In this document: piece by piece, positions 7,385 to 44,039 of the stretch | Numbering within the stretch: position 1 is the first letter of the stretch | Layout of the letters: each line of letters opens with the position of its first letter | DNA from: Escherichia coli | Lineage (GTDB): Bacteria > Pseudomonadota > Gammaproteobacteria > Enterobacterales > Enterobacteriaceae | Reading direction: 5' to 3' (one strand) | DNA: 64,000 nucleotides | Assembly (NCBI RefSeq): GCF_003018255.1 | Contig: NZ_CP027440.1 | Program-made: the position numbers and the translations under genes | The notes under the pieces: model-generated | Told to the model about the DNA's origin: nothing | The model's input: the letters and a program-made list of their open reading frames with translations, nothing else | The model's database searches: none

Positions 7385-7652
7385 AGTCAGCGAAGGGAAT
7401 GCTTCTGGCTTTTAACAGATAAAAAGAGACCGAACACGATTCCTGTATTCGGTCCAGGGAAATGGCTCTTGGGAGAGAGCCGTGCGCTAAAAGTTGGCAT
7501 TAATGCAGGCTTAGTTGCCTTGCTCTTTAAGAATAGATGACGACGCCAGGTTTTCCAGTTTGCGTGCAAAATGGTCAATAAAAAGCGTGGTGGTCATCAG
7601 CTTAAATGTTAAAAACCGCCCGTTCTGGTGAAAGAACTGAGGCGGTTTTTTA
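7385..7652 (+). ncRNA. ryeA: RyeA (SraC) small RNA, antisense to and fully overlapping SdsR
   Basis: Established locus organisation (RyeA encoded opposite SdsR between pphA and yebY). A plus-strand hairpin plus T-tract at about 7613-7651 can serve as its terminator. The 5' end is not determinable from sequence. Confidence 0.45.
7420..7523 (-). ncRNA. sdsR: SdsR (RyeB) sigmaS-dependent small RNA
   Basis: Minus strand reads GCAAGGCAACTAAGCCTGCATTAATGCCAACTTTTAGCGCACGGCTCTCTCCCAAGAGCCATTTCCCTGGACCGAATACAGGAATCGTGTTCGGTCTCTTTTT, which matches SdsR as I recall it. A CTATTCT -10-like element lies just upstream on that strand and a GGTCTC-T-tract terminator at the 3' end. Confidence 0.7.
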
Positions 7653-7680
7653 TTGGAAATCAAAAGGCTATTTTAGGTAA

Positions 7681-8022
7681 TTAACAGAGTTTTTCAGCTC
7701 GCTCTATAAACGGTGCCAGACTCATTTTTTCGCCGGGATTGTTAGGATCATCAATCTGAATCACCGAAATGGGTTGGGCTTTAGTCTTCCCACTGGCAAC
7801 TTCCTTTTGTGCGATATCGTTTAACGGATACTGCACGAGGGTACTTGGGTTGATGACATACAAAGCATTACCCGGTCGGCAAGTCAGCATCACCTCTTCG
7901 CGATTAAACGCCCATTTGTCTTTACCCACTTCAAAACGGCTGACGGTAATCACCTGCGGTGCCGCCAGCGCCGCTGCAGAACTGGTGAGTAACAGAAACG
8001 CCAGAATACTTTTTTTCATCAT
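7681..8022 (-). CDS. yebY: Secreted DUF2511-type protein YebY
   Basis: 113 aa with N-terminal signal peptide ([20 protein letters not shown]); last gene of the yobA-yebZ-yebY cluster. Confidence 0.8.
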
Positions 8023-8034
8023 TTTCGTAATCCA

Positions 8035-8907
8035 TCAAAAAGGTTCGAGAGTCGCAAGCAGGCTGATGATCACCAGCACTACCGCACCTATCGCCCATTC
8101 GAGTTTAGTCATCCACACAAACCAGGGAGCCGCACGATCTTCATCCTGCCTCATGCGCGGTACAAGAACATAACGATTAGCCAGCGCGATGACCACCATA
8201 ATCATCACCAGGATGGCTTTGAGCATTAAGAGTTGGCCCCAGTAAGTCGTAAGCGTGGGGGGAAATCCGGTAATCAACAATGCATTAAGCACGCCGCTTG
8301 CCAGTACGCCGATCACCGCAAAATGCCCGCACCAGGAAAAACGCATCAGCGCCTGAATAGCCTGGTGTCGCCAACGGCCTTTGATGAGTTGCATACACCA
8401 GAGCACCGGCAGTAATCCCCCAAACCACGCCGCCGCACAGATCAGGTGAATTGCGTGATTAGTCTGATGGATTTTCGCCGTTACCCCTTCATTCAGCGTC
8501 GCATGCCCGACTCCCGCCAGCAGAATAAATTGCGCGGTAGTGAGCATAAATAGCAAACGTGGCATATTCTGCGGTTGCATAAGGGCAACGATCAACGTTA
8601 CGAGGGCGAGAACAATTTGCCATAACCAGATGCCACCAAACTGCGTTTGCAAAACAGCCAGCCAAATGTTTGGCGAAAATACATCTGACCATCCCGTTCC
8701 CATCAACCCGCCCTGAACGGCGAGCATTGCAGTGGCACTGATCAAACTCCAGACGGCAGCGTGCTGTTGTAAACGCAGAAAACGCTTCGTCAGCAAGCGA
8801 CGAATCGTTAAGGGGGCCAGCCAGGCACCGTACATTGCGAAGCCAAAAACCAGCATCAACGAGGTGAAATGGATAAATCGCAGCGCGATCCAGGTAAACG
8901 CCAGCAT
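8035..8907 (-). CDS. yebZ: CopD-family inner membrane protein
   Basis: 290 aa polytopic membrane protein recognised as YebZ (CopD homologue), directly downstream of the CopC-like gene. Confidence 0.85.
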   Translation of the reverse strand: MLAFTWIALRFIHFTSLMLVFGFAMYGAWLAPLTIRRLLTKRFLRLQQHAAVWSLISATAMLAVQGGLMGTGWSDVFSPNIWLAVLQTQFGGIWLWQIVLALVTLIVALMQPQNMPRLLFMLTTAQFILLAGVGHATLNEGVTAKIHQTNHAIHLICAAAWFGGLLPVLWCMQLIKGRWRHQAIQALMRFSWCGHFAVIGVLASGVLNALLITGFPPTLTTYWGQLLMLKAILVMIMVVIALANRYVLVPRMRQDEDRAAPWFVWMTKLEWAIGAVVLVIISLLATLEPF

Positions 8908-8910
8908 GAT

Positions 8911-9285
8911 TTATTTCACGCTAAAGGTGTAGTGTCCTTTCGTTTTATGCCCGTCCACCGAAACAACATGCCAGTCAACGGTGTAGGTTCCGGGTTTCAG
9001 CGAATCGGCCAGTGGAACAATCAGTTGCTTTTGGTCCTGCTCATTCCGCTTCGCCGGTAATGTTTTAATATTTTCGTTTTTTGGCCCCGTGATTTTTGCA
9101 CCACTGAATCCTGTTTCAACGCCTTCCGAGAAGTTTAAAGTGATTGCCTGCGGGGCAGCTGTCACTTGCGCATTTGCCGCAGGATACTGATGCGTTAAAT
9201 GCGCATGTGCCCAGACGGAAGGTGTCACCAACGAAGTGGTCAGGATTGCCAGCGCGTAGCGAAGGGAGCGTGCAGTTGAAGCCAT
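8911..9285 (-). CDS. yobA: CopC-family periplasmic copper-binding protein
   Basis: 124 aa with signal peptide and N-terminal His motif after cleavage (AHAHL...). Matches YobA. Confidence 0.85.
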   Translation of the reverse strand: MASTARSLRYALAILTTSLVTPSVWAHAHLTHQYPAANAQVTAAPQAITLNFSEGVETGFSGAKITGPKNENIKTLPAKRNEQDQKQLIVPLADSLKPGTYTVDWHVVSVDGHKTKGHYTFSVK

Positions 9286-9423
9286 ATTATCTATTCCTTT
9301 TTGTAATAACTTTTTTACAGAGCATAACCTTGTCTAATGTCTGAGTCGAGGATCATCAATTCCGGCTTGCCATCCAGGCTCACTCTTAGTAACTTTTGCC
9401 CGCGAATGATGAGGAGATTAAGA

Positions 9424-9654
9424 ATGCTGAAGAATCTGGCTAAACTGGATCAAACAGAAATGGATAAAGTGAATGTCGATTTGGCGGCGGCCGGGGTGGC
9501 ATTTAAAGAACGCTACAATATGCCGGTGATCGCTGAAGCGGTTGAACGTGAACAGCCTGAACATTTGCGCAGCTGGTTTCGCGAGCGGCTTATCGCCCAC
9601 CGTTTGGCTTCGGTCAATCTGTCACGTTTACCTTACGAGCCCAAACTTAAATAA
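9424..9654 (+). CDS. holE: DNA polymerase III theta subunit
   Basis: 76 aa from [38 protein letters not shown]; the ORF track has a 29-codon upstream extension. Confidence 0.85.
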
Positions 9655-26900: not shown

Positions 26901-26934
26901 AATGCGACCAATCATCGTAATGAATATGAGAACT

Positions 26935-26953
26935 GTGATATTATAACATTTCA
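26935..26953. promoter_or_regulatory. Zur box in the divergent znuA / znuCB promoter region
   Basis: TGTGATATTATAACATTTC, reverse complement GAAATGTTATAATATCACA, a Zur-type palindrome between znuA (start 26900) and znuC (start 26979). Confidence 0.65.
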
Positions 26954-42632: not shown

Positions 42633-43468
<836 letters not shown>

Positions 43469-43472
43469 TTAA

Positions 43473-44039
43473 TTACGCCGACTGCTCGCTGGCAACGATC
43501 TCTTCAATGGACCACGGATGAAATTTAATGGTCGTTTTGCCATCGGTGACCGCCAGCGTCGGATTCGGTAATCGCTCATGCTCACCTTTTGGCGAACTGG
43601 TTTTAACTGAGATCCCCGGCAGGCTGAGTCCTTCATCAGAAAGCAATGCCAGCGCACGGGCATTCAGCGTTTCTGGATCGCCCGGCAGAACGATTTCAAT
43701 ATGTTCCCAACCTTCGTGCGGGTAACGTTTTTCCCCGGGCCACGGTAGCTCCACAATGGAAAACTGCCAGTGAGCAACCTGTACCGGTTCATGCAATTTA
43801 AACAGACAAATCGGCCTGCCATTGATCATATTTTCTGACAAAAGCTCGCCGCACTGTTCAAACCCGCGACGCCAGCGCTCAGCAGTGGCGTTTTGATGGC
43901 AACGCAAGGAAATGTGATCGGCAGTCAGCGGAGTGATATCCAACCCCAGACGGCGGGAAAGTTCATCTAATGCGTGGGTAAATCGCGGTAAATCCGATGC
44001 AATATCCTGCAACTCGTTGATAGATTGCCAGTTCGCCAT
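43473..44039 (-). CDS. yecM: Uncharacterised glyoxalase-fold protein YecM
   Basis: 188 aa from MANWQSINELQDIASDLPRF; the ORF track has a 2-codon extension. Confidence 0.8.
   Translation of the reverse strand: MANWQSINELQDIASDLPRFTHALDELSRRLGLDITPLTADHISLRCHQNATAERWRRGFEQCGELLSENMINGRPICLFKLHEPVQVAHWQFSIVELPWPGEKRYPHEGWEHIEIVLPGDPETLNARALALLSDEGLSLPGISVKTSSPKGEHERLPNPTLAVTDGKTTIKFHPWSIEEIVASEQSA

Follow-up and report, generated by a model that had tools for sequence, protein, structure and literature searches.

Introduction

The yobA-yebZ-yebY (AZY) operon of Escherichia coli K-12 has been the subject of two functional papers (Hadley et al. 2021, PMC8689200; Palmer et al. 2025, PMC11923076). 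It was reported that YobA raised copper import, that YebY dampened it as a negative modulator of YebZ, and that the copper handled by AZY served NDH-2 activity as well as MarR/mar activation (PMC8689200, PMC11923076). The two papers differ in emphasis. In the earlier one, delivery of copper to membrane targets, 'not import', was concluded: NDH-2-dependent NADH oxidation was lowered by the deletion of yobA or yebY and not by that of yebZ, which was dispensable for NDH-2. Copper tolerance was altered neither by deletion nor by overexpression of AZY, even in a copA mutant (PMC8689200). In the later one, import was shown mainly with overexpressed YebZ and a copA-lux reporter; the reporter signal was unaltered in the single AZY deletions, and in the triple deletion cytoplasmic copper as reported by CueR fell 3-4 fold and mar activation was abolished (PMC11923076).

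The importance of AZY is that no dedicated route of cytoplasmic copper uptake had been described in E. coli before it, and that it ties copper to mar-mediated multidrug resistance. The cluster analyzed here is this published operon, and since both the uptake route and the mar link have already been published, no new system is added. The small residual value of the analysis is the negative evidence on regulation, namely that no cis regulator was found, nor any site that could be recognised as one for CueR, CusR/HprR, Fur or Zur.

Gene organization and conservation of the locus

The window, a stretch of 64,000 nucleotides, is E. coli chromosomal DNA, matching E. coli chromosomes at 100%. Three closely spaced genes were found by the analysis of open reading frames on the minus strand at 7681-9285:

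yobA, 8911-9285, minus strand, open reading frame of 124 aa encoding a periplasmic CopC-type Cu(II)-binding protein
yebZ (annotated as copD), 8035-8907, minus strand, open reading frame of 290 aa encoding an inner-membrane CopD-family copper importer
yebY, 7681-8022, minus strand, open reading frame of 113 aa encoding a periplasmic DUF2511 protein

The spacers were 3 nt between yobA and yebZ (8908-8910) and 12 nt between yebZ and yebY (8023-8034), exactly as recorded in the first-pass annotation of this DNA. RefSeq names the same trio yobA, copD and yebY in a genome that is 100% identical, and the cluster was found in 5425 of 5426 complete genomes at an identity of 95-100%.

A 13-taxon ortholog set was built from a homologue search with the YobA protein and eight exact-protein contig look-ups; it superseded a YebZ contig scan that had given five loci, four of them from Escherichia. 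The gene order was the same in the 12 other Enterobacteriaceae, with spacers of 1-5 nt (yobA-yebZ) and 12-23 nt (yebZ-yebY). The layout is not due to chance, since the short spacers and the order were kept in all of these taxa. The cluster is surrounded by pphA, the SraC/SdsR sRNAs, holE, yobB, exoX and ptrB, and the synteny ptrB-exoX-(yobB)-holE<>yobA-yebZ-yebY was kept across the 12 other taxa.

It had been noted at first pass that neither a Cop/Pco partner nor a metal-sensing regulator was encoded nearby, and this held for positions 1-50000 of the window, where no CopA/CopB/CopRS-type genes were annotated, HexR and YebC were the only annotated transcription factors, and no cis-encoded regulator stood beside AZY. 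Multicopper oxidase CopA/PcoA, outer-membrane CopB/PcoB and CopRS/PcoRS adjoined AZY neither here nor in the 12 syntenic taxa. The gene cutC was located at 42840-43586, 33.6 kb from yobA, in agreement with the 33 kb given earlier, and znuACB lay 16.7 kb from the cluster. In a separate paper on DigH, yebZ merely marks where a suppressor deletion ends, which has no functional relevance.

Properties of the encoded proteins

All three family identities proposed at first pass (CopC, CopD and DUF2511) were recovered with profile scores above the cut-offs, those of Pfam by a wide margin. YobA matched Pfam CopC (PF04234) with an E value of 1.2e-27 and 97.1 bits (cut-off 23.3), and among the NCBIfam models it hit the equivalogs for YobA (264.6 bits, cut-off 129) and CopC (141.2 bits, cut-off 95). 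In alignments to the solved CopC structures 6NFQ, 1IX2, 6TPB and 9C14, its ligand positions were conserved; the stretches VWA|HAHLTH, where the bar marks the cleavage site, and VDGH (residues 110-113) lined up with the CopC 6NFQ motifs AHAHL and VDTH. The signal peptide comprises residues 1-26, leaving His27 at the mature N-terminus (PMC8689200). The mature protein thus starts with H27-A-H29-L-T-H32, the His-rich N-terminus that had been pointed out before. The ligand residues H27, (H29), D111 and H113 were present and invariant across the 13 taxa, and the mature protein contained no Met at all and had no Met-rich Cu(I) site. The earlier proposal to look for conserved copper-binding His/Met residues was therefore borne out for the His/Asp/His site and misframed for Met, as YobA, judged from its sequence, is a member of the Cu(II)-only CopC class.

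The first-pass annotation had left the metal open; in fact copper is established. Cu(II) was bound by YobA with a Kd of ~3 nM, as determined by ITC, via His27/Asp111/His113, the affinity for Zn, Ni, Co and Hg was lower by 2-3 orders of magnitude, and Cu(I) binding has not been published (PMC8689200). Uptake dependent on YebZ was copper-specific and energy-dependent, required His135/His154, being lost in the H154A variant, and left the Zn, Fe and Co content unraised when YebZ was overexpressed (PMC11923076).

YebZ matched Pfam CopD (E 3.3e-26, 92.1 bits, cut-off 32.1) and the NCBIfam CopD equivalog NF033808 over residues 4-290 (296 bits, cut-off 195). The CopD trait was defined from the published work as eight transmembrane helices and two conserved periplasm-facing His residues (PMC11923076). 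Eight separate hydrophobic segments were seen in the hydropathy profile, and both H135 and H154 were present and invariant in 13/13 orthologues. A search for a solved structure of YebZ found none.

YebY matched Pfam DUF2511 (PF10709; E 4.8e-45, 152.3 bits, cut-off 21), and its residues 21-113 matched the PDB entry 7N0J, 'YebY' (E 2.9e-58). The disulfide pair C48 and C113 was invariant in the 13 taxa, and YebY was the best-conserved AZY protein in this comparison, with an identity of 76-99% versus 47-94% for YebZ. The protein binds several metals with Kd values of 50-100 uM (PMC8689200). No sequence evidence contradicting the copper-uptake reading of AZY was encountered.

Together with the published function, these family matches fit the copper-uptake or delivery module suggested at first pass. 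We proposed that AZY is, with high probability, a copper-uptake operon in which YobA and YebZ import copper, YebY restrains the import and FnrS acts on expression in trans. Cu(II) would be taken up in the periplasm by the N-terminal His27/Asp111/His113 site of YobA and passed to the 8-helix inner-membrane YebZ, which would carry it to the cytoplasm through His135 and His154, while periplasmic YebY would hold back the import. The imported or delivered copper would feed NDH-2 activity and MarR oxidation, the latter leading to mar-dependent antibiotic resistance.

Putative promoter, leader and terminator

Two elements were placed at the ends of the presumed transcript:

putative sigma-70 promoter of AZY, 9321-9349, minus strand, proposed from conservation
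intrinsic terminator, 7606-7650, minus strand, 30 nt past the yebY stop codon

The putative promoter consists of a -35 element TCGACT (9349-9344), a 17-nt spacer and a -10 element TATGCT (9326-9321); TCGAC and GTTATnCT were invariant blocks in the 13-taxon alignment. A consensus promoter scan of 9286-9423 found nothing, as this candidate matched the consensus at only 8/12 positions and fell below the scan threshold. The transcription start would be expected at ~9316-9313, giving a leader of ~30 nt. Cleavage by MazF 19 nt upstream of the yobA AUG sets a lower bound on the leader length (PMC5001579). The fold of the leader was not above shuffles in stability (z +0.71), i.e., it was unstructured, and a permissive-threshold Rfam search of the 5' region of yobA picked up neither a riboswitch nor a leader RNA, its only hits being SraC/SdsR downstream.

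The terminator is formed by a G+C-rich hairpin (7650-7611) followed by a U tail, with an energy of -19.8 kcal/mol and a z of -3.84; none of 200 shuffles was as stable. The A-run on its opposite side suggests that it is bidirectional and serves the convergent ryeA too, the 3' end of which maps in K-12 to ~7653 (PMC12288456 Table 1). AZY would be transcribed as a single unit from a weak, probably constitutive sigma-70 promoter to the hairpin past yebY.

Control by FnrS

The control of the cluster had also been regarded as open at first pass. This no longer applies to anaerobic repression: yobA-yebZY was FNR-repressed with no FNR ChIP peak and was assigned to FnrS (PMC3688515 Table 5), the repression by FNR via FnrS was also stated in PMC8689200, and yobA is among the experimentally supported FnrS targets (PMC4086111).

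The FnrS sequence was verified before the duplex prediction, and a pairing site was predicted by RNAduplex:

predicted FnrS pairing site over the yobA Shine-Dalgarno and start-codon region, 9283-9302, minus strand

In the predicted duplex, yobA mRNA -17..-9 (AAAAAGGAA) pairs with FnrS nt 52-60 (UUCCUUUUU), and -7..+3 pairs with FnrS nt 39-48, giving a 9-bp and a 10-bp helix (19 bp) over the Shine-Dalgarno sequence and AUG with a core energy of -19.3 kcal/mol. When FnrS 39-95 was paired with yobA -40..+20, the energy was -26.8 kcal/mol, which ranked third among 48 gene starts (median -14.3); this energy was not unique in the window, as the yebF and flhA starts paired with FnrS equally well or better. 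The full-length FnrS duplex with yobA -80..+30 (-56.8 kcal/mol) was uninformative, because shuffles averaged -36 kcal/mol, and the restricted windows were used instead. The block AT(T/A)ACAAAAAGGAATAG was nearly invariant in the alignment of the 13 leaders, and the 9-bp pairing core was invariant in 13/13. In this post-transcriptional control, which acts in trans, FNR induces FnrS under anaerobiosis; FnrS would then pair with the translation-initiation region of yobA, covering the Shine-Dalgarno sequence and the AUG, and shut expression off.

An FNR-like site, TTGATGATCCTCGA (9359-9346), was also considered. It had two mismatches, was matched by 10% of shuffles and overlapped the conserved -35 block; it was rejected as a direct FNR site because no FNR ChIP peak was seen by Myers et al. 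(PMC3688515).

Search for copper boxes and metal-responsive sites

Two sites homologous to the pco 'copper boxes' have been placed at -34 and -22 of yobA (PMC8689200). The hexamers TGTAAA and ATTACA were indeed present at these positions, and their cores form the following element:

inverted repeat TGTAA-N8-TTACA, 9302-9319, no strand assigned, the halves being the literature 'copper boxes'

Relative to the CusR/HprR box consensus CATTACAAAATTGTAATG (PMC9302797), the TGTAA and TTACA halves, set 8 nt apart, are everted. Upstream of yobA, the best match to the full CusR/HprR/PcoR box CATTACAAAATTGTAATG had 6/18 mismatches, equalled by 14% of shuffles, and the best match to the CusR palindrome AAAATGACAAnnTTGTCATTTT had 9/20 mismatches, no better than shuffles. 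The TGTAA half was kept only in Escherichia and two relatives and was not conserved in Salmonella, Citrobacter, Enterobacter, Buttiauxella and Dryocola. The repeat is also poorly placed for an activator, because it lies between the putative -10 element and the Shine-Dalgarno sequence. On these sequence grounds, its assignment as a CusR/PcoR/HprR site is not supported.

A CueR (MerR-type) site is a CCTTCC-N7-GGAAGG dyad within a promoter that has a 19-bp spacer. The best match to the dyad upstream of yobA had 6/12 mismatches, equalled by 99% of shuffles, so the CueR- or CusR-type sites for which a search of 9286-9423 had been recommended were not recovered above the shuffle level. No Fur or Zur box was found upstream of yobA, whereas the same search recovered the Zur box of znuA/znuC as a positive control, and the CpxR and marbox scans upstream of yobA were no better than shuffles.

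The 'copper boxes' thus failed the consensus and conservation tests, whereas the predicted FnrS site is deeply conserved, and we infer that the AZY promoter may lack copper sensing. The question is thereby sharpened to whether copper import is regulated by copper at all. It is conceivable, with a likelihood a little below even, that AZY expression does not sense copper and that copper import in enterobacteria is gated by oxygen (FNR to FnrS), perhaps also by pH via YdcI. If so, the 'copper boxes' would be a chance, Escherichia-specific everted repeat, the FnrS/Shine-Dalgarno block would be the sole conserved cis-regulatory element in the yobA leader, and YebY would provide post-translational restraint in place of a metalloregulator.

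Alternative explanations

An alternative to the import reading is that the system is primarily a periplasmic chaperone, YobA with YebY metallating cuproproteins of the inner membrane or periplasm such as NDH-2, and import by YebZ being secondary or an effect of overexpression. We regard it as rather unlikely. It would account for the lowered NDH-2-dependent NADH oxidation in yobA and yebY deletions, an effect not shared by the yebZ deletion (PMC8689200), for the unchanged copA-lux signal of the single deletions and the reliance of the import data on overexpressed YebZ (PMC11923076), and for YebY being better conserved than YebZ. However, the triple deletion phenotypes and the copper-specific, energy-dependent uptake killed by H154A (PMC11923076) argue for import, as do the invariance of YebZ H135/H154 in all 13 orthologues and CopC-CopD fusions such as YcnJ, which favor a coupled hand-off. 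The two roles are also compatible, and both are included in the 2025 model (PMC11923076).

A remnant of a Cop/Pco copper-resistance determinant, serving detoxification and controlled by a copper-sensing two-component system at the 'copper boxes', is largely refuted and was considered highly improbable. YobA and YebZ are homologous to CopC and CopD of Cop/Pco, and TGTAAA and ATTACA do occur at the published -34/-22 sites (PMC8689200), but CopA/CopB/CopRS-type genes are absent from positions 1-50000, AZY deletion or overexpression did not change tolerance even in the copA mutant (PMC8689200), and the half-sites are everted, mismatched at the shuffle level, unconserved in TGTAA and poorly positioned for an activator.

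The published data on specificity already refute the reading that AZY handles another metal, e.g., zinc, or has no metal role, and its likelihood is negligible: weak YobA binding of Zn, Ni, Co and Hg, the several metals bound by YebY (PMC8689200) and the nearby znuACB would speak for it, but YobA prefers Cu(II) by 2-3 orders of magnitude (PMC8689200), YebZ overexpression raised no Zn, Fe or Co (PMC11923076), and a Zur/Fur box is absent upstream of yobA although the znuA/znuC control was recovered.

Comparison with known systems

The system closest to the cluster is AZY of E. coli K-12 (yobA b1841-yebZ-yebY), which is the same locus in another strain: the genes, order, spacers and functional residues are identical, the neighbors pphA, ryeA/sdsR and holE are the same, and the differences are strain-level nucleotides only.

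The copper-uptake operon ycnKJI of Bacillus subtilis resembles AZY in acquiring copper by way of a CopC domain that passes it to a membrane domain of the CopD type, with a small extracytoplasmic accessory protein as the third component; YobA aligned to the structure of the YcnJ CopC domain (9C14). However, CopC and CopD are fused in YcnJ and encoded by separate genes in AZY, the accessory protein is the DUF1775 protein YcnI rather than the DUF2511 protein YebY, and ycnKJI has the copper-responsive repressor YcnK, plus CsoR, encoded in or acting on the operon; AZY has no adjoining regulator.

The plasmid and Pseudomonas operons copABCDRS and pcoABCDRSE share homologous CopC/PcoC and CopD/PcoD with AZY. 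They differ in also encoding an outer-membrane protein, a multicopper oxidase and the CopRS/PcoRS two-component system with its copper boxes, all of which AZY lacks, and in the extra Met-rich Cu(I) site of CopC/PcoC, which is missing from YobA. Cop/Pco confers copper resistance, whereas AZY gives no copper tolerance (PMC8689200).

With regard to control, AZY resembles the FnrS regulon (sodB, maeA, gpmA, folE, folX, cydDC, metE and others) in its anaerobic FNR-dependent repression. In this regulon, as at the predicted yobA site, FnrS uses a single-stranded, C/U-rich stretch to pair with the ribosome-binding site of its target. AZY is the sole copper-handling member listed in the FnrS regulon.

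Organization of the AZY operon

The cluster is the published 'AZY' operon, the genes of which were taken from a six-frame ORF list, and the metal-related loci znuACB and cutC from the RefSeq annotation of an identical genome:

8911-9285, minus strand, yobA, 124 aa
8035-8907, minus strand, yebZ (RefSeq copD), 290 aa
7681-8022, minus strand, yebY, 113 aa
25968-28516, znuACB
42840-43586, cutC

The three ORFs were consecutive in the minus-strand sequence, and the spacers of 3 nt (yobA/yebZ) and 12 nt (yebZ/yebY) were exactly those of the first-pass annotation. Its CopC/CopD/DUF2511 naming was also correct according to the RefSeq names, Pfam (YobA, CopC, 1.2e-27; YebZ, CopD, 3.3e-26; YebY, DUF2511, 4.8e-45; all far above the gathering score) and the NCBIfam equivalogs 'CopC domain-containing protein YobA' (264.6 bits, cut-off 129) and 'copper homeostasis membrane protein CopD' for YebZ (296 bits, cut-off 195). 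The 2.4-kb AZY region matched E. coli chromosomes at 100% identity and occurred in 5425 of the 5426 complete E. coli genomes.

In the RefSeq annotation of window 1-50000 the gene order was msrC, yebS, yebT, rsmF, yebV, yebW, pphA / yebY, copD (yebZ), yobA / holE, yobB, exoX, ptrB and onward. No CopA/CopB-type gene was annotated there, as had been noted from the sequence, and HexR and YebC were the only transcription factors. A 105-aa ORF (9337-9654, plus strand) was rejected as a separate gene; it was holE (9424-9654, 76 aa) extended 5' to an earlier in-frame ATG, overlapping the yobA promoter region.

Functional residues and published activities

In the suggested comparison with CopC, YobA carried H27, H29, D111 and H113, and its mature part lacked methionine. 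Along the whole mature length it aligned to solved CopC/PcoC/YcnJ-CopC structures, and the AHAH and VD-H motifs were in register. The protein belongs to the typical Cu(II)-only CopC type: it binds Cu(II) with a Kd of ~3 nM through the N-terminal amine/His27, Asp111 and His113, shows no binding of Cu(I) and binds other metals 100-1000 times less tightly (PMC8689200, Hadley et al. 2021). YebZ contained eight hydrophobic segments and both H135 and H154; no relative with a solved structure was found. In YebY both C48 and C113 were present, and residues 21-113 matched PDB 7N0J (E 2.9e-58), the 1.8 Å YebY structure, in which the fold is MlbQ-like and a disulfide is conserved (PMC8689200).

The operon plays no part in copper tolerance or oxidant defence, and full NDH-2 activity needs yobA and yebY, not yebZ (PMC8689200). 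Its deletion lowers CueR-reported cytoplasmic copper 3-4 fold, and overexpressed YebZ gives specific, energy-dependent copper accumulation, with uptake reduced by H135A, abolished by H154A, raised by YobA and lowered by YebY (PMC11923076, Palmer et al. 2025). Copper-dependent mar activation and resistance to norfloxacin, ciprofloxacin and ampicillin also require the operon (PMC11923076).

Conservation across Enterobacteriaceae

A YebZ-based scan of reference genomes yielded five loci only, and eight more orthologous loci were added via YobA homologues. The set comprised Escherichia spp., E. albertii, three Citrobacter, Salmonella, Enterobacter kobei, Intestinirhabdus, Buttiauxella, Dryocola and one further enterobacterial locus. 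The order ptrB-exoX-(yobB)-holE, divergent from yobA-yebZ-yebY, was kept at every locus, with spacers of 1-5 nt (yobA-yebZ) and 12-23 nt (yebZ-yebY), and the functional residues of all three proteins were invariant. Identity to window 7681-9285 was highest for YebY (76-99%) and lowest for the transporter YebZ (47-94%); YebY, the most conserved of the three, has the least clear function.

Putative promoters, leader and terminator

The 13-taxon alignment of the holE/yobA spacer revealed four conserved blocks:

9367-9395, holE-side block, GGCAAG and GTTACTAAG, read on the plus strand as TTGCCA-17 nt-TAACTT
9349-9345, TCGAC block
between the TCGAC block and the yobA start, GTTATnCT block
9307-9291, AT(T/A)ACAAAAAGGAATAG block, immediately 5' of the yobA AUG

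The first block is plausibly the holE promoter. For yobA, the TCGAC and GTTATnCT blocks together gave a putative weak sigma-70 promoter (-35 TCGACT, 17-nt spacer, -10 TATGCT; 9349-9321). It agreed with the consensus at only 8 of 12 positions, and a promoter scan missed it. It would give a leader of ~30 nt. MazF reportedly cleaves at two ACA sites, one lying 19 nt before the yobA AUG and the other (~8930) 23 nt before that of yebZ (PMC5001579), and the first of these fits a leader no shorter than 19 nt. This yobA ACA (9304-9302) lay inside an ATTACA 'copper box' half and abutted the predicted FnrS pairing site.

The operon ended in a strong hairpin with a U tail (7650-7611, -19.8 kcal/mol, z -3.84), 30 nt past the yebY stop. 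Within 7606-7653 the hairpin was flanked by an A-run and, on the opposite side, by a T-run, and the K-12 ryeA 3' end maps to ~7653 (PMC12288456 Table 1); hence, it looks like a bidirectional terminator common to the convergent yebY and ryeA. The antisense sRNA pair between pphA and yebY, SraC/RyeA (7417-7561, plus strand, 176 bits) and SdsR/RyeB (7421-7520, minus strand, 114 bits), is a known E. coli feature outside the AZY operon.

Metal-regulator sites

The 138-bp divergent holE/yobA spacer (9286-9423), in which a search for CueR- or CusR-type sites had been suggested, was scanned on both strands, and matches were judged against shuffled sequence. The scan included the consensus sequences of CueR, Fur, Zur, FNR, CpxR and the marbox. 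With the Zur consensus as a positive control, the znuA/znuC spacer operator GAACTGTGATATTATAACATTTC (26930-26952, plus strand) was recovered with 2 mismatches. Elsewhere, yecM carried a perfect match to the CpxR-type direct repeat GTAAA-N5-GTAAA (GTAAATCGCGGTAAA; 43978-43992, plus strand), within the yecM-cutC transcription unit; ~0.1 such matches per 64 kb are expected by chance. For CusR, the CusR/HprR box CATTACAAAATTGTAATG (PMC9302797) and the palindrome AAAATGACAAnnTTGTCATTTT (PMC11195947) were used. No metal-regulator match in 9286-9423 was better than those in shuffles.

Two sites 'homologous to copper boxes' have been placed at -34 and -22 (PMC8689200), corresponding to TGTAAA (9319-9314) and ATTACA (9307-9302). 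These hexamers are everted half-sites with an 8-nt gap, whereas real boxes are TTACA-N4-TGTAA; the TGTAA half was conserved only in Escherichia and two relatives, and the ATTACA half was part of the longer block just before the yobA AUG, for which FnrS pairing offers another explanation. Judged by sequence, the copper-box claim is therefore unsupported. Together with the lack of a recognisable metalloregulator site in the spacer, this suggests that AZY transcription may not be copper-responsive. If so, oxygen, acting via FNR and FnrS, would be left as the main conserved input.

A conserved minus-strand block, TTGATGATCCTCGA (9346-9359), lay just upstream of and overlapped the inferred yobA -35. 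It resembled an FNR half-site with a degenerate second half (2 mismatches, equalled by 10% of shuffles), and no FNR ChIP peak occurs at the yobA promoter (PMC3688515). The block could be an UP-like element, a promoter part or a site for YdcI, a pH-related LysR-type protein with a ChIP-exo peak at this promoter (PMC6237786). A minor-sigma SELEX signal also falls within the spacer (PMC5493296).

Predicted pairing of FnrS with the yobA leader

The AT(T/A)ACAAAAAGGAATAG block exceeded the length needed for a Shine-Dalgarno sequence and was complementary to the single-stranded body of FnrS, an FNR-dependent sRNA encoded between zntB and dbpA, outside the window. The FnrS sequence used was confirmed in 5389 E. 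coli genomes and by Rfam RF01796 (134.8 bits). RNAduplex predicted two helices, FnrS nt 52-60 (UUCCUUUUU) with yobA -17..-9 (AAAAAGGAA) and FnrS nt 39-48 with yobA -7..+3, AUG included. The core had an energy of -19.3 kcal/mol, and FnrS 39-95 paired with yobA -40..+20 at -26.8 kcal/mol. By the FnrS 39-95 duplex yobA ranked third among 48 window gene starts (median -14.3), the yobA leader was unstructured (z +0.71), and the 9-bp core was kept in 13/13 orthologous leaders. The predicted pairing agrees with the literature: FNR represses yobA-yebZY, no FNR ChIP peak is seen there, and the operon has been attributed to FnrS (PMC3688515 Table 5); yobA is also among the targets of FnrS with experimental support in a benchmark list (PMC4086111). 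The strongest predicted FnrS 39-95 duplex of the 48 (-33.1 kcal/mol) was at the yebF start (14706, minus strand), which may be chance or an unlisted target.

Proposed mechanism and relation to known systems

In the best-supported account, YobA captures periplasmic Cu(II) and passes it to His135/His154 of YebZ, which imports copper, with import damped by YebY; part of the YobA/YebY role is delivery to membrane cuproproteins. Expression would start at a weak promoter, probably a constitutive one, and FnrS would stop it under anaerobic conditions by occluding the ribosome-binding site. A chaperone-only system overlaps with this model and does not replace it. Both the handling of another metal and a remnant of a Cop/Pco-like resistance system controlled through copper boxes are contradicted by the published phenotypes and the site scans.

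The metal and control, regarded as open in the first-pass annotation, had mostly been answered in the literature (copper, PMC8689200, PMC11923076; FNR/FnrS, PMC3688515). The AZY locus is already known and experimentally characterised, and the regulation result is a modest refinement of that picture, not a discovery.
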